DNA from: a virus
Reading direction: 5' to 3' (one strand)
Length of the DNA stretch: 14,223 bases
Virus genome (UHGV): UHGV-0168750
In this document: in pieces, positions 3,781 through 14,200 of the stretch
How positions within the stretch are numbered: position 1 is the first letter of the stretch
How the letters are laid out: every line of letters begins with the position of its first letter
The notes under the pieces: generated by a model
Database searches by the model: none
Told to the model about the DNA's origin: nothing
Seen by the model: the letters and a program-made list of their open reading frames with translations, nothing else
Made by a program: the position numbers and the translations under genes

Positions 3781-3807
3781 TTCGATTTTTAGATGTAAAA
3801 TGACCTT

Positions 3808-3852
3808 CTACCGCCCGATTCTATGGGCGGTAGGTGTTTTTATTTTTTTTTT
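3808..3852 (+). terminator. Rho-independent terminator closing the upstream small-gene block
   Basis: Perfect 9-bp stem CTACCGCCC (3808-3816) / GGGCGGTAG (3825-3833), 8-nt loop, then a T-rich run (3835-3852) including ten consecutive T. Confidence 0.65.
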
Positions 3853-3868
3853 GATCTGGGAGGTTTTA

Positions 3869-4429
3869 GTGGCCACTTACGTACCTGATTTAAGCCTGAC
3901 CTCAGCCGAATTAGTGGTCGCTTTAATCAACCACGATAACGGTTCACAGTTGTCTTTAAGAGAAATTCGTATTAGCAACACTGTGGTAAACCCGTCTCCG
4001 ACCACTTCGCGTCGTAACACACTGTCAGAGATTACAAAAATCAGGAAACCTGACGGTGCTTCTGTGGTTGTTTATTACGATCGCTTAGATGCGGAAGAAG
4101 TATTAGCTTCTGAACCTATTTTGATTTCGTTAGACGGTACTGAAGATAACATTCGTGACATTTTAGATGTTGTAAATGAATTCTGCGGAACGAACTTACA
4201 GCCTGACGATTTGCGCGCTTCAGATATCACATTAGGTAACGATCCCATTGCTGTTAACGTTGCTGACGATTCTCCTGCGTGGATGAATGCGTTTATGGTG
4301 ACGTTATTCGATACAACCGAACGAGCATTAGCCAACGAAGAAGACGCGATCTTCTGTATTGGCGATGTTGCTGTTCTTACATTTGAGGTTCCAGATGGCG
4401 ACTCAGCTGAAGAAAACCCGACTACATGA
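3869..4429 (+). CDS. P1a: conserved small protein (186 aa), paralogue of 13013-13528; likely tail-fibre-associated
   Basis: GTG at 3869 preceded by GGGAGG (3858-3863). N-terminus VATYVPDLSLTS..LINHD matches MGQFVPDLSLTS..LINHD of the paralogue; shared motifs KIRxP, YYxRLxAE, CG(T/S)NLQP(D/E)DL, VLTF. The ORF-track start at 3800 lies inside the terminator hairpin. Confidence 0.6.
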   Translation: MATYVPDLSLTSAELVVALINHDNGSQLSLREIRISNTVVNPSPTTSRRNTLSEITKIRKPDGASVVVYYDRLDAEEVLASEPILISLDGTEDNIRDILDVVNEFCGTNLQPDDLRASDITLGNDPIAVNVADDSPAWMNAFMVTLFDTTERALANEEDAIFCIGDVAVLTFEVPDGDSAEENPTT

Positions 4430-4856
4430 ACTTGACAGTTTTACCGGTGACCCACAGGGCGGGGTATTACTGTTTAGTAAAGAGAATAAAGAATACAAAA
4501 TTAACGCCGAACAGTTACTACCAACGAACACCGTAACTACGGTAAACGGTGCTGACGGCACGGCAACGATTAATCCAAATAACGTTACTGACGTTATACT
4601 GGTATTAAACGATCCTGCGACAACCTTAACTATCTCCCCGTTAACGGAAGCCAAAGCAAACGTTCGGGTTGAGTTTTATTTAACCGTTAAGCAAGGAACA
4701 GGGGCGAATAAGATTACTTGGCCGGATAATGTAAAATGGCCACATAACGCAACTCCTGTTTTGTCCTTTACAGCTAATGCGGAAGATACATTAGCGTTCT
4801 ATACGCTTGATGGTGGGACTACGTGGAAAGGTTCCCTCATCGCCGCAGGTTACTAA
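4395..4856 (+). CDS. P2a: small protein (153 aa) carrying the shared N-terminal module (putative virion-docking domain)
   Basis: ATG at 4395 preceded by GAGGT; residues 5-40 KKTRLHELDSFTGDPQGGVLLFSKENKEYKINAEQL align with the N-termini of the long fibre and of 13528-14148. Overlaps P1a by 35 nt. Confidence 0.6.
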   Translation: MATQLKKTRLHELDSFTGDPQGGVLLFSKENKEYKINAEQLLPTNTVTTVNGADGTATINPNNVTDVILVLNDPATTLTISPLTEAKANVRVEFYLTVKQGTGANKITWPDNVKWPHNATPVLSFTANAEDTLAFYTLDGGTTWKGSLIAAGY

Positions 4857-4858
4857 CG

Positions 4859-7800
4859 ATGAGAAAAACTTTTCAACGACACGCTATTTCTTACGCACTG
4901 TCGTTAGCCTACGGGCACCAAACATTCGTTACTCGAAATACGGGGACAACGAATGATGCTCACACAGACCACTTTATTCAGAATGAAGAAGGGGTCTTAG
5001 CTAATAACCGTCACTTTATTGCAGATACGATGGCGGAGTACCAGCCCAATGGTGATGCAACGACCGAAGGTCAATCGCTACACATCCTTGGGTACTGTCA
5101 TCTGTATATTGCAACTAAAGACCCAAGATGGTTAGATGCAGCAAAACATGCATGGGATGCTTACACTACCTACTTTTACGGTGGGCAAGCTATTCCGACT
5201 ACACCTCAGCGTTTTATTTGTAACTGGTTAGTAAACGGAAAAGAGCCGGTACTCGCGCACTATCCGATACACCCAACAGAACCTACACACGGTGGTTACA
5301 AATGTGTACCCGTCAGGTTCACTAACGGTCAGTGCAAAATACCACACGGTGCACCGTTCTGGGGTGAATATCTAGACACCTTTACGTTTGCTCATCGTGG
5401 TCATCCAACGTGGGGTGCTATTAATGCGGACGTACAGATTATCAAGGAGGATAAAGAAGGGTTAATCGATTGGGATGCTGTGTTAACGCATCTGATTACG
5501 AATCCCGATAAACCTTACGAAACGAAAGCCTGGGTTGACTGGCCAACGTTACTGAACAACGCTACTGGCTACACACCGCTGTGGGGTGGTTCTTCATCAA
5601 AAGGACCTAAGCACGATGTCGACTGGATAGTTGCCTGGACAGGTAACAAGATTCAGGATAGCGAGATTATTGAGTCGGGCTTAGCAGACGCCGATAAAGG
5701 TACCGTACAGTTAAAAGATACTCAATTAAACGGTGTCTATTTAATTAACTACGCGGTAAAACTTCCTGTCGAGCACGGCGGTTATGCTTTTAAACGTAAT
5801 GAACCGTGGCACAACCGACCCGTACATACACCATTCTTAGGCTCTAAGAACCAGTACGGTAATGCAGCAGATGCAGAACTGTGGTTTATCGACGCTTGTT
5901 ATTTGCTGTGGCGAATTACAGGTGAAGATAAATACAAACACGCGTTAGACTGTGCGTTTTACACCGCACACGAGTATACGTATATTGATGCCGCCGACAA
6001 GTTCTTTAGACGTTCTACGGCCGCAGAAACACCGTTTACCGATGGTATCTCTTACGACTTCGATTATCCCGATACCGTGAGCGTCGAATACGGTCGCGAT
6101 ACGAATGGCGATATCACTATCCACGCACCTAAAGCTGTACAACACTTTATGGAGCAGCAAGCAGTACGTTTTAGAATCAATAAAGATTCTAAGCTCAGAG
6201 TGACGTATGGTGGTGTGTGTAAAAACGGTGACCCGGTATATTGTCGTGCGATGGTTGACATTAATCCGGTAAAGGCTGACACGGAAGAAGTGAACTGGTA
6301 CGGTTTAACGTTACCCCGTTCTACTTCGTTAAGCGTTAAGCAATACGATATTGACTTAGGTCAACTTGCACGGATTACTACCCCAGAAGGGGAAGACTAT
6401 TTAATCGCAGATGCACGAGCCTGCTCGGATTACGGCGGTTGTACGTGGGAAGAACGGTTTGAAGACAATATCTACGATGGTCGTGCGGGTACCATTGTCG
6501 AAGCTTTATTTCCGAATGACGATGCGGGCTTTATTATCGGTTTCTGGTTAACCGAAGCGGAGAAGGTTAAGCCGGTTTCTATCGTTTATCGTGCGGACGC
6601 AGACTTTAACCTACGTTTAGTTGATTCTGATAACTGGCGTTGGTGGTGGATGTTACCGAACACGAACAACGAATGGCGACAAGTAACCTTAAATTTAGAG
6701 GACGCGACGTTATCGGGATACCAACCTGACCACACTGACGCTGATCCTGAGCCTTCAGCACCTAACTTCGATAAGGTTGACCAGGTTACTATCCTGCCCG
6801 ATTCTGCTGTAGACCACGCTCACTTTGCTTACTATTGCGTGAATGATGTCCCGCCGGTCTTTAATAAAGATGATGGGTATATCCTCACGTTCCGTATCGC
6901 TTTACGCGGTGGGAGTGAGTTTGACGCAAAAGTCGGCGATTGTACCATCAAAGACTATCGTTTAGACTCACTGGCGTATTGTCCTGGGACGATTCCGTTC
7001 TCGAATATTTATTCAGAAGGGTCTGAACAGCTCGGTGCATGGCACGGTATGCCCTACCCAGGTTATCAATATCCGTTTATGTACGCAATACACAAAGATG
7101 ACCGGTATAAACTGTGGTTAGAGAACCAAATACAGTTTATGCATGACTCGCAAATTGCGTATCAAAAACAGATTGGTGAGTTAGGGCCAGGTTGTGCAGC
7201 CTATATCTGGAATCGTTGGGATAACTACAGTTACGGAAAACCAGATACCTGGACAACATTCCATTGGGGTGACGATCACCCCTGGGCAGGCTACCAACCG
7301 CGCGCATTTCATGCTGCCTGTCGGTGTTGGTACGAGTTAACGTTACGAGGCAAATCAGTTCCTGAGACGTTAACAACCTATATCGAGAATTGGGTGAATT
7401 GGTTAGGTGGGTTTGTGGATAGGTTTAATGGCCACACGCCAAACGAGTTCCCCACAGCACCGAATAAGCCGGTTTGGGTAGAAGACGACTTTACAGCGCA
7501 TATGTGTGCGCTGTGGTTAGCGGGTTGTTGCTGGGCGTTACTTGCCGGTGCGACGAACCCTAACTACGAAAAAGTAGTTAATGCCGCAATTAAAGAGCTC
7601 GGTGACGGGTTTACGATTACGTCAATTCCAAACAAACCCATTAATGGTGCTTGGTCGCCTGCGCCACGAGAGTCTTCGGATAACGGAATGGCTTTTGGTT
7701 TCTATACCGGTGAAGCATTACGTGCTTTAGGACTTTATATCACTTATAAAACTTACGGAGCCAACACAAACATTTATCATGACTTAGCAATCCCAGAACA

Positions 7801-7864
7801 CGAAAGCGCGGTATTAGACGTCACCATCGCCTTAGAAGATGACGCATTAAAACCGGAATTATAA
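4859..7864 (+). CDS. Large Trp/Tyr-rich protein (1001 aa); putative virion-associated carbohydrate-active enzyme (depolymerase-like)
   Basis: ATG at 4859 is 3 nt after the P2a stop, in frame with the ORF-track GTG at 4823. Helical segments such as ADAELWFIDACYLLWRITGEDKYKHALDCAFYTAHEY and AHMCALWLAGCCWALLAGATNPNYEKVVNAAIKELGDG recall alpha/alpha-barrel glycosidases or lyases. Existence of the gene is secure; the function is inferred. Confidence 0.7.
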   Translation: MRKTFQRHAISYALSLAYGHQTFVTRNTGTTNDAHTDHFIQNEEGVLANNRHFIADTMAEYQPNGDATTEGQSLHILGYCHLYIATKDPRWLDAAKHAWDAYTTYFYGGQAIPTTPQRFICNWLVNGKEPVLAHYPIHPTEPTHGGYKCVPVRFTNGQCKIPHGAPFWGEYLDTFTFAHRGHPTWGAINADVQIIKEDKEGLIDWDAVLTHLITNPDKPYETKAWVDWPTLLNNATGYTPLWGGSSSKGPKHDVDWIVAWTGNKIQDSEIIESGLADADKGTVQLKDTQLNGVYLINYAVKLPVEHGGYAFKRNEPWHNRPVHTPFLGSKNQYGNAADAELWFIDACYLLWRITGEDKYKHALDCAFYTAHEYTYIDAADKFFRRSTAAETPFTDGISYDFDYPDTVSVEYGRDTNGDITIHAPKAVQHFMEQQAVRFRINKDSKLRVTYGGVCKNGDPVYCRAMVDINPVKADTEEVNWYGLTLPRSTSLSVKQYDIDLGQLARITTPEGEDYLIADARACSDYGGCTWEERFEDNIYDGRAGTIVEALFPNDDAGFIIGFWLTEAEKVKPVSIVYRADADFNLRLVDSDNWRWWWMLPNTNNEWRQVTLNLEDATLSGYQPDHTDADPEPSAPNFDKVDQVTILPDSAVDHAHFAYYCVNDVPPVFNKDDGYILTFRIALRGGSEFDAKVGDCTIKDYRLDSLAYCPGTIPFSNIYSEGSEQLGAWHGMPYPGYQYPFMYAIHKDDRYKLWLENQIQFMHDSQIAYQKQIGELGPGCAAYIWNRWDNYSYGKPDTWTTFHWGDDHPWAGYQPRAFHAACRCWYELTLRGKSVPETLTTYIENWVNWLGGFVDRFNGHTPNEFPTAPNKPVWVEDDFTAHMCALWLAGCCWALLAGATNPNYEKVVNAAIKELGDGFTITSIPNKPINGAWSPAPRESSDNGMAFGFYTGEALRALGLYITYKTYGANTNIYHDLAIPEHESAVLDVTIALEDDALKPEL

Positions 7865-7883
7865 CCCGCTTATAAAAAAAAAT

Positions 7884-7905
7884 GGGGGAGCATTCTACCT
7901 CCCCC
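7884..7905 (+). promoter_or_regulatory. GC-rich hairpin in the intergenic region upstream of the long tail-fibre gene
   Basis: GGGGGAG (7884-7890) / CTCCCCC (7899-7905) with an 8-nt loop, preceded by TATAAAAAAAAA (7871-7882); only a short T run follows, so a weak terminator or RNA stability/processing element. Confidence 0.3.
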
Positions 7906-7938
7906 GATCTTTTAGCTCCCGATAGAGAATTAAATATC

Positions 7939-10900
7939 ATGGCTAAAGCGGTCAAGAAAATACGTTTGCACGATTTACGTCCTTACGCCGGTGATATCGG
8001 TGAAGGCGTTTTGCTTTTTTCGAAAGACGAAAAAGATTATCAATTACCAGTCCGTGAGATCGTTGCTGATATTGACACCGTAAGGAACGCGGTTGCTGAT
8101 GCACAGTCCGCAGCAGCACAATCACAACAGTCGGCCACAGAAGCAACACAAGCAAAAGATTTAGCGGAAACCGCGAAACAGCAGGTTGACACTACCGCAT
8201 CAACTGTTAGCGAACAAGCACAAACGGTAGCAACAAAAGCGGCTGAGGTCGGCACAAAACATGCCGAAGTTTTAGCAGCAAAAACAGCAGTAGACACTGT
8301 TTTACAGTCGGTGAACGAAAAGGCTCAGGCCGTCTCTGCGAGTGAAAAAGCAGTCACAACAGCCGCCGCCGACGTAACGAAGAAAGCAGAAACTGTTACC
8401 CAGCAAGCTGGTCAAGTTCAACAGTCAGTCACTAGCATCACTGAAATTGCGGCAACTGTTGAAGCCAGTAAAGGCGCTGTGGAAGCTACTGCTGTACAAG
8501 TTACGAAAGACAAAGAATCCGCAGAAGGGGCAGCGACGCGTTCAGAAGCTGCTGCACAACGTGCTGAAGACATCGCTGCACAGGGGTTAATTGACGCCAC
8601 TACAGCTAACAAGGGTATCGTTAAACTTAATAATACCCTAACCAGTGATTCAGTAACGGAAGCGGCTACACCGTCGACAGTGAAGCAACTGAACGACGAG
8701 CTGCAATTAAAAGCCAACAAGCACTCACCGAACTTTACGGGGCAGCCGTCAGCACCAACACCTCCGAAAAATTCTAATGATACCAGTATTTCGACTACTG
8801 CGTGGGTACGTGCAGCTATCGCTGAATTAGTCGGTTCTTCTCCTGAAACGTTAGATACCTTAGCGGAATTAGCCGAAGCGCTGGGTAATGATCCTAACTT
8901 CGCAACAACGATTACTGAGAAACTTGCGCAGAAGCAACCTATCAGTCCGTTACTCACTGCAATCGCTGCGGTTACGACAGCGGCAAATAAACTCCCGTAT
9001 TTCACCGGCACTAATAAAGTCGGGTTAGCCGATTTTACAGAAACCGCCAGAACGTTATTAGCGAAAGGTTCAACAACCGAAATCATTGAGTTTTTAGGAT
9101 TAAAAGCCACCGTAGATAAAGCGAATGGCGCATTACAGAAAAACTCTAATGGTGCTGATATTCCAGATAAAGAAACATTTGCCCGCAATATTGGTCTGTC
9201 TCCTGACACTTATCTGCGTTTCCGTGGTGAAATGCCAACTGATGCGGATATCAACACTTTCGCCCCAGATACCAACTACACGGGTACGTGGTCGAAAGCA
9301 ACCTCGACCAACGCGACAATGGCAAAACACTTTCCAGAAGACGGTGCGGTCGGTTATCTGGAAGTGTATAAAGCGGGTAACTATAGCGGTGCACAACGTT
9401 TTACCTGTCGTAATGGTAACGTCTATAACCGTATGTTGTCAGGTGTGTGGAACGGCACTAATGGCCCGTGGTCACCGTGGAGAATGGTAACTACCGGTGT
9501 ACGTCCACTGGCTACATCAATTGACCTGAACTCCTTAGGCGGTGCCGAACACATGGGTAACTGGCGAAACTCGTCCAGTTCGTTGGCTACCTTTGCTAAC
9601 CACTACCCGGAAGAGGGCGGTGCTGCTCAAGGTGTTTTGGAAGTCATGGAAGGCGGTCTTTACGGACGTTTACAACGTTACACTACTCGACGTGGTACGA
9701 TGTATGTTCGTGGTTTGACGGCGACGTGGGATTCTACTAATCCGCAATGGGAAGATTGGATTCAGGTAGGTTATCAAACCGACGGCGCGTATTACAAAGG
9801 AAACTTCGATAACCTGACTAAACCAGGTCGTTTCAGCGTCACTGGAGAAGCCACGAATGGTCCCCTTACAGGTCCTTCGGGTGAAACATTGTTGGGTGTC
9901 TGTGCAGTTACTGTACGTTTAGACGGTACAGGGATCGAACAAACCTACACCACGCACGGTACAGGTGCGGAGTACAAAGGTCGACGTTTCCACCGTATTC
10001 GTACGGGTAATGTCTGGACGCCGTGGCGCGAGATTTACGACTCGAACAGTTTAGCCATGTTGTTAGGGGTCGGCGGCGAACGTGCGAATGTTGATCCTTT
10101 AGACTGGCAAACCTACGACTTTAAACCGGGTGAATTAATCTGTACGCCACTTAATACCATGAAAAACATTCCTGCGGGAATGGATTGGGGTGTTATCGAC
10201 GGTAATTTAATTAACATCCTGGTTGGGCCATCTGATGGCGCTACGTCAGGTCGAAGTATGTTGGTTTGGCGTAGTACGGTGTCTACCGCCAACTATCGCT
10301 TCTTTGCAGTACGTATCGCCGGTGAGAAGGGTAGCCGTACGATTACGCCACGACAAATGCCTGTGTTGAATGCGGCGCACACTTGGACAGAGAAACAGAC
10401 CTTTGCAAAAGGCTTGTCGGGCGAATTAACCGGTAATGCTTCAACCGCAACCAAATTACAAACTGCCCGGAAAATCGGTGGCGTTGGGTTTGACGGTAGT
10501 GGTGATATTAACCTCCCAGGCGTAAACCAACAGGGTAATCAAAACACCACGGGTAATGCCGGGACAGCCACTAAACTTCAAACCGCCAGAAATATTAACG
10601 GCGTGAGATTCGACGGTTCTGGCGATATTAATATCAACACCCTGGTAGGTCGTGGTCGGGTTACAGCTCTAACCGGCTCAGCGAAAGGTACACCTGGTAT
10701 CCAGATGTACGAAGTTTACAATAACGGTTATCCGACCGCTTATGGTAACTTACTACATTTAGGTGGTTCTACAGCTGTAGGCGAAGGCGAACTGTTAATC
10801 GGTTGGTCAGGTACTAACGGCGCACACGCCCCAGTGTTTATCCGTAGTCGTCGCGACAATGCGGAAGCACCATGGTCGGACTGGGCACAGGTATACACCG

Positions 10901-12441
10901 CCCGCGATAGCATCCCAGGGGTAAACGCGACTGGTAATCAAGATACTACCGGTAACGCGGCTACCGCGACGAAGTTGAAAACCGCTCGCAAAATTGGCGG
11001 TGTGAGCTTTGATGGTACTGGGGATATCAATTTACCGGGGGTTAACCAGCAAGGCAACCAGAATACGACAGGTAATGCAGCAACCGCTACCAAGTTACAA
11101 ACCGCAAGAACCATCAATGGTGTTGCGTTTGACGGCACTAAAAACATCGAAATAACGGCTGAAAGTTTAAATCTTGGTCAAACCGTAGAATTGGCCGGTG
11201 GGTCATTGCAGAAAAACCAGAACGGCGCAGATATTCCTGATAAGGGTCGCTTCCTGAGTAACATTAATGTTTACAGCAAAGGCGAGGTGGATGAGAAAAA
11301 AGGAATGCGGCAGTACGTATTTAACGCGCCGTCTAATGCCGTTGGCGGAAAGTGGTATCCAGTTATTTTCCGGCGTTCCACTGGTAGCACCGGCGAACTG
11401 GCTTCCAGAGTAGTTATTACAACTACATCTGCCGGTGGCGATTACGCAATGAATAACTGCGAATTCAATGGAACGGTAATGGCGGGCGGTTGGACTGATC
11501 GCGGTTCATACGCAGCAGGGTATTTTTCGATATATCAGACTAATGAGCGCGCAATCCATTCCATTGTAACAGGTGTGAAAGATGATGATGTGTGCAGCGT
11601 TTTTTACGTCGAAGGTAGGGCTTTCCCTATTCGAGTTTTTGCCGAAGAAGGGTTATCGGTTAGTGTTCCGACCCAGAATTATACCGTCGGTCAAACAACC
11701 TATAAGTGGGGAGCAACTAATCCTGCGACAGAAAGCACGAACGCACAAACCATTTTGGATTTTAACAATGGACGAGGATTTTATTGTTCCCATTCAATAT
11801 TCGCTATTAATAGTATTTTAAGCGGTAATCTGGGTATCGGTACCGCGAATGCTTTAGGTGGGAATTCCATAGTTTTAGGGGATAATGACACCGGTCTTAA
11901 ACAGAATGGGGACGGTATTCTAGATGTCTATGCCAACGGTCGACATGTATACCGTTTTCAAAACGGCATTGCTATTGCTCTTTATGGTGTTCAGGCTGGT
12001 AACGGTAAAAAACTTTCGTTAACTAGCGCAAACAATTCCACGTTGAATGCGGGTCTTAACATTTGGGGTAACTCTTCGCGTCCAACTGTTGTAGAACTCG
12101 GTGATGACGCAGGCTGGCATTTTTATAGCCAACGAAACACCGACAACTCGATATCGTTCGCCGTTAATGGGCAAATTCAACCGGGAAACTGGAGTAATTT
12201 CGATTCCAGGTACCAAGCACGGTCAGGAGTTGTCCAGGATGTTCGTTTCGGTGGTCAAAGTTATCATAACCCCGGGAGTAATACGACCTCTTGGAATTTC
12301 TCCGCTCCAGGTGGTCATTGTCTTACTGGTATTTCTATATCGGATACTGGCAAAAACTCGGCAGATAACGTTAACGGTGTTTATTATCGCCCGCTACAAA
12401 AATTGGTTAATGGTACTTGGTACAACGTCGCGTCGGTATAG
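7939..12441 (+). CDS. Long tail fibre protein (1500 aa)
   Basis: N-terminal shared module [36 protein letters not shown]; Ala/Gln/Thr-rich coiled-coil-like region; tandem ~75-aa domains; four copies of the tail-fibre repeat TGNAxTATKLxTARxIxGVxFDGSGDI; C-terminal [13 protein letters not shown]-type motif; followed by a Tfa chaperone gene. The ORF-track start at 7882 lies inside the hairpin. Confidence 0.85.
9247..10038 (+). repeat. Three tandem ~75-aa domain repeats inside the fibre (a fourth diverged copy at about 10640-10897)
   Basis: Each unit ends in a Trp-rich motif: [38 protein letters not shown], and in the fourth copy [12 protein letters not shown]. Protein-level periodicity; the nucleotide sequences are diverged. 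Confidence 0.45.
10432..10636 (+). repeat. Pair of tail-fibre sequence repeats (~33 aa each) inside the fibre gene
   Basis: [69 protein letters not shown]; the T-A-T-K-L...FDGSxDI pattern is the classical phage tail-fibre repeat shared by T-even and lambdoid side fibres. Confidence 0.7.
10933..11154 (+). repeat. Second pair of tail-fibre sequence repeats
   Basis: [74 protein letters not shown]; same motif as 10432-10636 with many synonymous differences, so an old duplication. Confidence 0.7.
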
Positions 12442-12443
12442 TT

Positions 12444-12974
12444 ATGTTACATTTAAAAAATATTCGTTCAGGAAACCCTAAAACTCCCGAACAGTGGGAG
12501 CTTACCAAGCGCTTAGGCGTCATATGGCTTTACGATGAAACCGGAAAAAATTGGTATGAGGAGCAAAAGAATTTTCAAGCAGATACTATAAAATTCGGGT
12601 ACGATGCGGACGGCATCATACGTTGGAAGGTTAAAGACATAACGTCGATAAACCCTGACAGTTTAAGCGTTGTTGAAGTTCCCGACGTTATTATAAACCG
12701 TCGTGTCGAATGTAACGGCGAGTGGATGTTTAAAGACGGACGCGCAATCAAGCGGATTTATACGCCGGAGGAGCTGGTTCAACGTGCTGAATCTAAAAAA
12801 GCCGTATTGTTGTCCGAGGCAGAAACAGTCATTAAGCCGCTTGAGCGGGCTGTTAAGCTGAAAATCGCAACAGATCTCGAGCGGTTACGGCTGGAAGCCT
12901 GGGAGGGTTATACTGTAATGATCAGTCGCGTCGATACTAATAATCCCGTCTGGCCTGAAAAACCGCTAATATAA
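12444..12974 (+). CDS. tfa: Tail fibre assembly protein (Tfa-type chaperone, 176 aa)
   Basis: ATG 2 nt after the fibre stop. C-terminus [46 protein letters not shown] matches the conserved Tfa motif (lambda Tfa ends ...[48 protein letters not shown], from memory). The ORF-track start at 12417 overlaps the fibre gene and is rejected. Confidence 0.85.
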
Positions 12975-13012
12975 CCAGCTTGAAACTTCTCTGAAAATTG
13001 GAGGTAAGCTTT

Positions 13013-13528
13013 ATGGGGCAATTCGTGCCGGATTTGTCACTGACCTCACCTAACATGGTTATTTCGTTGATCAATCACGACCTTCAGCTTGATCTGCAAG
13101 AAACCGATGTTGAGTTTAGCGAACTAAAATCTAGCGACACGATGGATCGTGACACCACTGCTGTTGTAAAGATTAGACGTCCTGGTAACAGAACGTTACA
13201 AATCTATTACAACCGTTTAACCGCAGAACGTTGGTTAAACCAGCAACCTATTCTGGTGCAAGTAACTGGCGAGGGGTTTAGCACACACGATTTAATCGAC
13301 GCGATTAACGCAGCCTGTGGCAGTAACCTGCAACCCGAAGATCTTCAGGACGATTCATTTACAGTAGGAAAAGACGCTGTAACGTTACAGGTATCACCTA
13401 ACTCCCTAAGTTATAAAGGCCAATTCTCTGTTTTGGTTTTTGGTAACGGCGAAGAAGCCGCGGTAACAAAAGACGACAACTTAATTGTTACCGCAGATAA
13501 TCGTGTCTTAACCTTCGGAGGTCAATAA
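13013..13528 (+). CDS. P1b: conserved small protein (171 aa), paralogue of 3869-4429
   Basis: ATG at 13013 preceded by TGGAGG; N-terminus MGQFVPDLSLTS..LINHD and internal motifs shared with P1a; stop TAA overlaps the next ATG (TAATG at 13526-13530). Confidence 0.65.
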   Translation: MGQFVPDLSLTSPNMVISLINHDLQLDLQETDVEFSELKSSDTMDRDTTAVVKIRRPGNRTLQIYYNRLTAERWLNQQPILVQVTGEGFSTHDLIDAINAACGSNLQPEDLQDDSFTVGKDAVTLQVSPNSLSYKGQFSVLVFGNGEEAAVTKDDNLIVTADNRVLTFGGQ

Positions 13529-14148
13529 TGGCTGAATTGGTAGGAAAGGTACGTGTTCACGAACTGCCGTCGCTTTCAGAAGACATCACGGGTGTAGTAG
13601 TCTTAGCGTCTAAGGAACAAACCGAATATCAACTCCCGATTGAGAATTTAGGGGGTGGCGAGGTTACAGTGAGTCCGTCAGCGAATAACATCCTTAAGTC
13701 TAACAGCGATGGACTGTTTGTTGACGGCGCACATCCTATTATACCGAAAATGGATGCAAAAACCTTATCGGGAAATATGGTGGTAGAAAAAACGCTGACA
13801 GGTGGCGCGGTAATCTGCAAAACAATGGTTGACGTTAATAATAGGCTGGGGATTTCGCAATTATCTGGAGTGTCAATTTATAGCCAGTGCCTGCTGGAAA
13901 ATAAATTGGTTTACCTGGCAGAAGACGGCAGTATTATTGATGCGTACTTCTACATCAGTAATACAAAAACCACTGCCAGTACAATAACGCACACTATTCG
14001 GGTTGTGTTAGCGAAGATACCTTCTAAAGTTATTGATATCACCGATTTGTCTGAAACTGAGGTGCAATACCAGGATGGTAATCTACCTGTTAAGATCGTT
14101 ATTAAACATCTTGTGGGTACAACACTTTCTCAGAATGGGATGAAATAG
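13528..14148 (+). CDS. P2b: protein (206 aa) carrying the shared N-terminal module; putative second short fibre or receptor-binding protein
   Basis: Residues 6-41 GKVRVHELPSLSEDITGVVVLASKEQTEYQLPIENL align with the N-termini of P2a and the long fibre; the C-terminal ~165 aa are unrelated to both. Confidence 0.65.
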   Translation: MAELVGKVRVHELPSLSEDITGVVVLASKEQTEYQLPIENLGGGEVTVSPSANNILKSNSDGLFVDGAHPIIPKMDAKTLSGNMVVEKTLTGGAVICKTMVDVNNRLGISQLSGVSIYSQCLLENKLVYLAEDGSIIDAYFYISNTKTTASTITHTIRVVLAKIPSKVIDITDLSETEVQYQDGNLPVKIVIKHLVGTTLSQNGMK

Positions 14149-14152
14149 TTTT

Positions 14153-14200
14153 AGGTAGTAGGGGCTAAGCCCCTACTACCTTTTTCTTTTTTTATTTTTT
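14153..14200 (+). terminator. Strong rho-independent terminator at the end of the fibre operon
   Basis: Perfect 13-bp stem AGGTAGTAGGGGC (14153-14165) / GCCCCTACTACCT (14169-14181) with a 3-nt loop, then TTTTTCTTTTTTTATTTTTT; begins 5 nt after the P2b stop. Confidence 0.8.

Follow-up and report, generated by a model that had tools for sequence, protein, structure and literature searches.

Conserved pairing of short DUF7941 genes with genes for module-bearing receptor-binding proteins in jumbo phages, and a possible connector role for the short protein

The viral contig UHGV-0168750 (14,223 nucleotides (nt), the whole of which is referred to here as the window) raises the question of what holds exchangeable host-recognition proteins in place. 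Two small genes of the window, P1a and P1b, encode related proteins (together, P1), and each is immediately followed by a gene, P2a or P2b, whose product begins with the same short sequence, here called the docking module. What kind of protein is P1, and why does it precede a module-bearing gene twice within one block of receptor-binding protein (RBP) genes? P1 is a short member of the DUF7941 family of jumbo phage proteins. Short DUF7941 genes stand directly in front of module-bearing genes in a series of related jumbo phages, and the body of the protein behind the module is swapped between relatives while P1 and the module are kept. The pairing suggests, at a lower level of certainty, that P1 may tether the module-bearing proteins to the virion.

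The two P1 genes are paralogues, as had been proposed in the original prediction for this locus. Their products share 38% identity over 172 amino acids (aa; BLASTP, E=3e-40), and their Smith-Waterman score of 310 compares with 32 +/- 5 (maximum 57) for 1000 shuffled sequences. P1a begins at GTG 3869, with a GGGAGG Shine-Dalgarno sequence upstream, and ends with the TGA stop codon at 4427-4429; in L004, an independently assembled relative, the gene caller likewise gives a protein of 186 aa. An alternative start at ATG 3800 was ruled out, as GTG 3869 has the Shine-Dalgarno sequence, the homologues begin MATYVPD, and the interval 3800-3868 holds a terminator hairpin. P2a starts at ATG 4395, so that its frame overlaps that of P1a by 35 nt, and P1b (ATG 13013 to TAA 13526-13528) meets P2b (ATG 13528) in a TAATG junction; both junctions lie where they had been described. 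At the nucleotide level no significant similarity was found between the two cassettes, which implies an old duplication and not a recent repeat. Together with the recurrence of the layout in independent assemblies, this rules out a recent duplication or an assembly artefact. The two proteins share a simple architecture, with an N-terminal globular domain (approximately aa 1-148 in P1a and aa 1-142 in P1b) followed by an acidic C-terminal tail (aa 149-186 and aa 143-171, respectively).

It had also been supposed that P1 represents an uncharacterised family, and here the prediction was mistaken. P1a matches the Pfam model DUF7941 (PF25613) over residues 7-148 with 69.5 bits (E=4.2e-19), and P1b with 62.7 bits (E=4.9e-17), against a cut-off of 27 bits. 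The same family is known in Salmonella phage SPN3US as paralog family B, and it includes the N-terminal domain of PhiKZ gp127. P1a also matches phrog_2935 and phrog_1037, and the PHROGs to which P1 belongs are annotated 'virion structural protein'. A profile built from 12 family members, P1b included, matched one solved chain, PHIKZ127 (gp127) in PDB 9XQD (9xqd_0; E=1.6e-6, residues 16-152). The AlphaFold2 model of P1b, which is of moderate confidence (predicted local distance difference test (pLDDT) 64), has this chain as its sole significant Foldseek match (E=1.9e-5, probability 1.0), at a template modelling (TM) score of only 0.34-0.37 because the model is weak. For family member P0068, which has a confident model (pLDDT 86), the TM score to the same chain is 0.67. 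Profile and models thus agree in assigning to the P1 N-terminal domain the predicted fold of the gp127 N-terminal domain.

DUF7941 proteins have only recently come into view. The family is described as exclusive to chimalliviruses, and each virion of phage Goslar contains hundreds to thousands of copies of two members, gp22 and gp23 (bioRxiv 10.64898/2026.04.21.720040). AlphaFold 3 predicts head-to-tail oligomers in which the linker or C-terminal domain of one protomer docks on its neighbour's N-terminal domain, filaments of purified gp22 are visible by electron microscopy, and in Goslar gp86, gp92 and gp161 a DUF7941 unit is fused to carbohydrate-binding, glycoside-hydrolase or leucine-rich-repeat domains (bioRxiv 10.64898/2026.04.21.720040). 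Goslar gp23 is a DUF7941 protein without the C-terminal domain, which is optional in the family. Within the outer peripheral baseplate of PhiKZ (PDB 9XQD), gp127 caps the gp139 band (PMC13250141), and Goslar gp22/gp23 and PhiKZ gp126/gp127 have been proposed to act in host recognition at the periphery of the baseplate (bioRxiv 10.64898/2026.04.21.720040; PMC13250141). Proteomic work on SPN3US defined a 20-member 'paralog family B', whose members are abundant in the virion, and suggested gp122 as a further member (PMC5694885). A search of SPN3US 115-133 kb (L015) with the hidden Markov model (HMM) of the family identifies family B members gp138-145, gp148, gp151 and gp154 as DUF7941 proteins (E 1e-13 to 1e-28).

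P1 covers positions 3-153 of the 276 in the DUF7941 profile and lacks the C-terminal domain; it is therefore a short protein of the gp23 type, consisting of an N-terminal domain and a tail. The P1 tails are 26-38 aa long and acidic, with 'h-x-h-D-x-G' repeats that are found across the family. In P1a (aa 149-186) and P1b (aa 143-171) they carry the pattern 'D-x-h-h-x-h-x-D-x-x-h-h-T-F', which is common to short and tandem family members. The tails of such members contain 2-3 repeats of the h-x-h-D-x-G-S-x type, and their last 30 residues average a net charge of -3.6; those of P1a (...EEDAIFCIGDVAVLTFE...) and P1b (...KDDNLIVTADNRVLTFGGQ) match this repeat pattern. An exhaustive search with a P1 profile recovered 1061 DUF7941 clusters at 50% identity. 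About half of the best 150 of these are short (140-200 aa), many join 2-3 N-terminal domains covalently in tandem, with a period of ~170 aa (for example P0068, among the family representatives P0063-P0158), and some consist of an N-terminal DUF7941 unit followed by a large body of up to 1778 aa; long fusions of the last type are common among the representatives (for example P0124, P0197 and P0117). The tandem proteins look like a head-to-tail chain fused into one polypeptide, and to that extent offer indirect support for oligomerisation of the family.

The second partner is defined by its N-terminus. P2a and P2b have only their first ~41 aa in common (46% identity, E=1e-8), and the shared start had been expected in these two proteins; it is indeed present in both, but the long tail fibre encoded between them carries it as well, which makes three bearers in the block instead of two. 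Pairwise scores among the three modules are 81-100, as against 19 +/- 4 for shuffled sequences. The consensus is ~42 aa long (MAxxVKKKRLhDLxxYxGDxxxGxLLFSKdxKdYqLP) and corresponds to nt 4395-4520 in P2a (aa 1-42), nt 7939-8064 in the fibre gene and nt 13528-13653 in P2b. Gene callers start the fibre at ATG 7882, a codon that is overlapped by a hairpin at 7883-7906; the start at ATG 7939 is preferred because of the module alignment. The N-termini of the modules are basic and the tails of P1 are acidic. A profile of 14 modules gave no PDB match at E<=10 and no Pfam match better than E=0.1, and a word-indexed search of a large protein collection with the module returned four fragments only.

The arrangement of the window is conserved in other phages. 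A short P1-type gene directly precedes a gene with the module at its start in the window (twice) and its relatives L004, L005/L006, L016 and L017, in SPN3US, Asesino, pEa_SNUABM_29 and Eowyn (four times), and in the loci L009, L010, L011 (twice) and L012, which bears out the proposal that P1 and a module-bearing gene form a repeatable unit. With the module HMM, matches were obtained at the N-termini of P2a, the fibre and P2b in the window and L004, in the gene directly after P1 in SPN3US and Asesino, and in the fibre and a 706-aa SASA esterase of L005, a Shigella-type relative. Seven short DUF7941 representatives were sampled; in six the next gene has the module at residue 1 (E 2e-22 to 1.5e-4), and in the seventh, the most distant, the match was not significant. 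In Eowyn, five short P1 genes are interspersed with seven tail-fibre or tailspike genes, and each of the latter starts with a variant of the module (K-K-L-t-D-L-P-x-Y ... G-x-L-L-Y-s-E-x-G-x-d-Y-q-l-P) that is confined to Eowyn-type genomes. Independently, L011 shows two cassettes, with a 168-aa protein and then a 1013-aa enzyme encoded after the first P1 and a GDSL esterase after the second.

Co-occurrence at the level of whole genomes points the same way. In the phage database, P1 has tblastn matches exclusively in jumbo phages (33 records), and the module has matches in 28 records at E<=1. Three of these 28 are Felixounavirus records (E 0.4-1) in which the match lies inside a small early hypothetical protein, and they were treated as chance; the remaining 25 all belong to the set of 33 records with P1, and in the database contexts examined the module follows P1 directly. 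The junctions themselves vary. Besides the TAATG of P1b and P2b, there is an ATGA in SPN3US, a 17-nt overlap in Asesino and a distance of 167 nt in L016, and the gaps in L009-L013 and Eowyn are 2-24 nt, except for 270 nt between Eowyn gp234 and gp235. The adjacency is kept across lineages in which the P1 proteins are only 20-35% identical. It had been asked whether a module gene always follows a P1 homologue: with the exception of one distant lineage among those sampled, this is so for the short subfamily, in phages of the SPN3US, Asesino and Eowyn types and in their relatives from metagenomes. The adjacency rule is limited to that subfamily. Across the family at large many DUF7941 genes have no module-bearing neighbour, which at that level is the outcome named beforehand as a refutation of the proposal. 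The literature searched contains no description of a conserved pairing of short DUF7941 genes with module genes, of repeated duplication of the unit, or of free exchange of RBP bodies behind the module, by an invertase or otherwise; the SPN3US papers note neither the shared N-terminal module nor the pairing. The pairing is the robust and apparently new part of this analysis.

A comparison of close relatives reveals what changes within the unit. The slot after P1b holds the 206-aa protein P2b in the window, L004 and L017, the 706-aa SASA esterase in L005 and L006, and a 133-aa module protein together with a 348-aa protein in L016, and across these replacements P1b remains 69-95% identical. The slot is hypervariable, its body being exchanged while P1 stays, and the module serves as a constant, autonomous N-terminal element of RBPs that are otherwise unrelated. 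A further change affects the first cassette. In L005 (4652-4877) and L016 (4502-4727) the body of P2a and the whole of the 1001-aa protein encoded behind it (window 4449-7759) are deleted together, which leaves P1a with ~18 codons from the beginning of the module and an open reading frame of 43 aa, followed by the module-bearing fibre. This joint loss fits the notion that P2a and the 1001-aa protein act as one functional pair. P2a matches phrog_9017 ('tail fiber protein', E=1.9e-40), and its C-terminal ~100 aa (aa ~50-153, window 4545-4853) recur in 520 phage records, where they end small tail-fibre proteins (Vequintavirinae, Vibrio, Erwinia and others) whose genes often adjoin glycosidase or sialidase genes. 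This part of P2a may be a widespread adaptor domain for enzyme-type RBPs. The 1001-aa protein belongs to phrog_2871 ('tail protein', 1474 bits) and had no Pfam or PDB sequence match.

In one locus the exchange appears to be built in. L009, an Eowyn-like contig (Logan SRR28229723), has a serine resolvase/invertase gene (1457-2008) flanked by inverted repeats of 25 nt (1400-1424 and 2200-2224) that are 92% complementary. One repeat covers codons 43-50 of a 646-aa RBP gene, right after the module, and on the opposite strand a promoterless RBP segment has the other at its 5' end. We take the AAACC..GGTT core of these repeats to resemble the hix and gix sites of Hin and Gin. L009 probably contains an invertible host-range switch of the Gin/Hin type, in which the module is constant and the body is swapped, much as Gin and Cin keep the anchor and replace the body in the invertible tail-fibre segments of phages Mu and P1. 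A switch point just after the module is expected if the module is the part that attaches to the virion. The window has no invertase gene.

How might such a unit work? The likeliest of the readings considered, at about even odds, is that P1 is a small connector that plugs module-bearing RBPs into a DUF7941 network. Such a connector would need two faces. One would join the head-to-tail network at the outer periphery of the baseplate, by way of an N-terminal 'socket' or a C-terminal tail acting as a 'plug', and the gp127/gp126-like pair of 282 aa and 165 aa, whose genes lie 7 kb downstream, would be the likely network partner. At the other face the RBP would be held by its N-terminal module, a physical contact between P1 and P2 that we infer from the gene pairing. 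The polarity of this contact could be of two kinds: the basic module may bind the acidic tail of P1, or it may occupy the socket in the P1 N-terminal domain. Each P1 gene of the window is translationally coupled to its module gene; a new RBP would be mounted by placing its body behind the module, and P2a, with its adaptor-type C-terminal domain, would probably carry the module-less 1001-aa protein in turn. The cassette would then be the split-gene equivalent of the fused Goslar proteins gp86, gp92 and gp161. The idea that the core of the module (LLYSEDGxxYQhP) mimics the DUF7941 tail repeat (hxLDDGSxFxL) was set aside as speculation, the HMM matches in P1 tails being individually insignificant.

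A broader version of the proposal, which we hold more tentatively, is that the 42-aa module is a dedicated 'plug' for DUF7941, and that the two provide a general, non-covalent plug-and-socket for arbitrary RBPs and enzymes in SPN3US-, Asesino- and Eowyn-type jumbo phages. If so, new specificities could come from duplicating a cassette, from replacing the body or from an invertase switch behind the module, and the system would be the missing link between the proposed 'DUF7941 fibre cloud' and unfused tail fibres. Such a system would have relatives in principle. Conserved N-terminal anchors dock interchangeable RBPs on a virion-bound partner in phages with branched or adaptor-based RBPs, such as G7C (gp66/gp63.1), CBA120 (TSP1-4), SP6 and K1-5 (adaptor) and RaK2 and phiK64-1. 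The module has no sequence relationship to these anchors, and its putative partner is a DUF7941 protein. P1 shares its Pfam family and N-terminal fold with Goslar gp22/gp23 and PhiKZ gp126/gp127, and differs from the members of Goslar-, RAY- and PhiKZ-type loci, which are 280-310 aa long and are encoded beside baseplate spoke or wedge genes without a module neighbour. The fused Goslar proteins, like the cassette, link a DUF7941 unit to a receptor-binding or enzymatic body; unlike them, the window uses two separate genes, and the RBP has its own 42-aa module, which is absent from the fused proteins examined.

Several observations weigh against a connector role for P1. Many DUF7941 genes have no module neighbour, including SPN3US gp138-154, Goslar gp31/33/34, RAY gp8/9/11 and, in L004, the 282-aa and 165-aa pair (17713-18561 and 18575-19072), which lies beside an endolysin gene. 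The numbers do not balance either, with two P1 genes to three module genes in the window and five to seven in Eowyn, and some module genes have no P1 in front of them (the fibre of the window, Eowyn gp225, gp233 and gp237, and the 646-aa and 588-aa genes of L009). In a Rosetta-stone test, none of 201 family proteins combined a DUF7941 domain and the module in one polypeptide, and a mirror-tree comparison of P1 and module identities (r=0.64) was uninformative, as the correlation runs along lineages only and there is no paralogue-specific co-variation beyond shared ancestry. PhiKZ fibres, moreover, attach at sites other than gp127 (PMC13250141). All of this would suit an arrangement in which P1 and the module proteins are co-located and independent, P1 supplying further subunits of the DUF7941 network and the module docking on another baseplate protein, in the manner of the PhiKZ gp131-type fibre sockets; adjacency would then reflect no more than a shared late operon and a recombination hot spot. 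We regard this as unlikely, though far from negligible, since the genes are immediately adjacent, often with overlapping or abutting stop and start codons, even where P1 identity has fallen to 20-35%, the adjacency survives complete replacement of the downstream body, and module and short P1 occur together in the same genomes only.

The proteomics of SPN3US bears on the connector role in another way. The P1a orthologue, gp122, was missing from the proteins detected in wild-type virions and turned up in 47(am1) particles alone; in the wild type gp123 had 7 spectral counts and gp124 had 73, neither being assigned to the head (PMC5694885). Absence of gp122 beside its two neighbours is what one would expect of a non-structural or transiently bound assembly factor, a dedicated chaperone for the module proteins that is not retained in the virion, and tight gene coupling is typical of chaperone-client pairs. 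Alternatively, gp122 may lie below the detection limit, as gp123 itself had only 7 counts. An assembly factor seems improbable to us in view of the company that P1 keeps: members of its family are abundant in virions, the PhiKZ baseplate incorporates the N-terminal domain of gp127, gp122 is found in the 47(am1) particles (PMC5694885), and P1 retains the conserved connector tail of its family. P1a and P1b also gave no match to the Caudo_TAP (PF02413) chaperone models, DUF7941 alone being matched, and the true chaperone of the block is a separate gene (12444-12974) downstream of its fibre. The most remote of the explanations weighed here is that P1a and P2a are joined by programmed frameshifting within their overlap into a Goslar-like DUF7941-RBP fusion. 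The P1a frame does extend 35 nt into P2a, and fused proteins of this kind exist elsewhere, yet relatives differ freely in their junctions, an ATG of P2a's own stands at the point where every module begins, and no X_XXY_YYZ slippery heptamer was seen on reading the overlap sequence; with junctions that are not conserved, programmed frameshifting was rejected.

A last difficulty for placing P1 at the baseplate concerns the location of the whole family. Thomas et al. assigned SPN3US family B to the head because its members persist in a tailless mutant (PMC5694885), whereas the 2026 work on PhiKZ and Goslar puts DUF7941 proteins at or beyond the baseplate; the two placements conflict. The pairing described here bears on this disagreement. 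It also matters for chimallivirus host recognition more generally, as the 2026 structures of PhiKZ and Goslar are at their least resolved in the fibres and the peripheral baseplate, and the proposal that DUF7941 proteins form host-recognition filaments is very recent. A conserved rule of short DUF7941 gene, module and any body would identify the RBP repertoire of these phages directly from sequence, and would predict a small tether protein for each RBP. It would also suggest a design for host-range engineering, in which P1 and the module are kept and the body is swapped, and thus, if it holds, a handle for re-targeting jumbo phages.

The block in which the two cassettes lie (Table 1) is the host-recognition locus of a ~225 kb SPN3US-related jumbo phage (Chimalliviridae). 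All long open reading frames of the window are on the + strand, two strong terminator-like hairpins (3807-3834 and 14153-14181) frame the entire block, and the 1001-aa tail-associated protein, the 1500-aa fibre and the Caudo_TAP chaperone are encoded between the cassettes.

Table 1. Coordinates of genes and terminator-like hairpins in the receptor-binding protein block of the window
Feature	Position	Strand	Evidence and remarks
Terminator-like hairpin with T-run	3807..3834	+	11-bp stem, 7 GC pairs; upstream of P1a, left edge of the block
P1a, 186 aa, short DUF7941 protein	3869..4429	+	PF25613, 69.5 bits; orthologue of SPN3US gp122
P2a, 153 aa, module and ~100-aa C-terminal domain	4395..4856	+	phrog_9017, module HMM; orthologue of SPN3US gp123
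Tail-associated protein ('enzyme'), 1001 aa, without docking module	4859..7864	+	phrog_2871; orthologue of SPN3US gp124
GC-rich hairpin (GGGGGAG...CTCCCCC), T-runs on both sides	7883..7906	both strands terminator-like	Between enzyme and fibre genes
Long tail fibre, 1500 aa, with docking module (nt 7939-8064)	7939..12441	+	Module HMM, Pfam PF03406
Tail-fibre assembly chaperone (Tfa, Caudo_TAP) for the long fibre	12444..12974	+	PF02413, E=2.3e-29; phrog_136, E=1.6e-62
P1b, 171 aa, second short DUF7941 protein	13013..13528	+	PF25613, 62.7 bits; 38% identity to P1a
P2b, 206 aa, module and receptor-binding-type C-terminal domain	13528..14148	+	Module HMM; phrog_33169 C-terminal match
Terminator-like hairpin, strong, end of block	14153..14181	+	13-bp stem, 8 GC pairs

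The assignment to this lineage follows from synteny with SPN3US (Seoulvirus) and Asesino, from the 222-226 kb contigs of relatives and from tblastn matches that are confined to jumbo phages; the chimallin gene lies outside the window. In SPN3US, by its original gene numbering, a DUF488 gene precedes P1 (gp122), after which come the small 'tail fiber' protein with the module (gp123) and the tail-associated protein of ~1000 aa (gp124), in the order of the window; in Asesino the DUF488 gene is likewise followed by genes for a P1 homologue, a 'tail fiber protein' of ~156 aa and a 'tail protein' of ~1000 aa. P1a is 42-45% identical to the SPN3US and Asesino proteins in the same position (42% to gp122), and P1a, P2a and the enzyme gene are orthologous and syntenic to SPN3US gp122-gp123-gp124. 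SPN3US differs in having one cassette, to which the window lineage adds the module-bearing long fibre, the Tfa gene and a second cassette of P1 and P2. The layout of the window recurs in L004 at 98% nucleotide identity. This identity sets in at a mosaic boundary at window 3780/3781, with 98% from 3781 on and 82% before it, and a 144-aa gene that lies between the DUF488 gene and P1a in L004, L005 and L006 is missing from the window.

Contigs of 222-226 kb, drawn from metagenomes and from assemblies of Salmonella and Shigella isolates, encode close relatives of P1b (69-95% identity). Near-identical jumbo-phage contigs of this size occur inside assemblies of Salmonella enterica and Shigella flexneri isolates (P0016, P0018, P0019, P0029 and P0038), which suggests that the phage travels with cultured isolates, for instance in a carrier state or by pseudolysogeny; the phage database searched contains no close relative. 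Megablast of the window likewise found no close phage, and only a piece of the fibre tip resembles tail-fibre genes of P2-like phages, P7 and RCS47. The start of the window (positions ~15-47) is a Nextera transposase adapter (TCGTCGGCAGCGTCAGATGTGTATAAGAGACAG), so that this contig end is an untrimmed sequencing artefact, and it accounts for spurious megablast matches to the ends of many unrelated phage records.

Beyond the module, the long fibre consists of a coiled-coil, Phage_fiber_2 repeats (PF03406) and a tip like those of phages P2, P1 and Mu. The interval 11071-11793 is 79-88% identical at the nucleotide level to tail-fibre genes of Peduovirus (P2-like) phages, P7 and RCS47, and the tip is followed by a lambda/P2-type tail-fibre assembly gene (12444-12974). 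Tip and chaperone, judged by this similarity, point to a recent exchange between temperate phages and the jumbo phage. In L011, finally, genes with Pfam matches to the anti-defence proteins Acb3 and Tad3 (9312-10534) lie a few kb downstream of the RBP locus.

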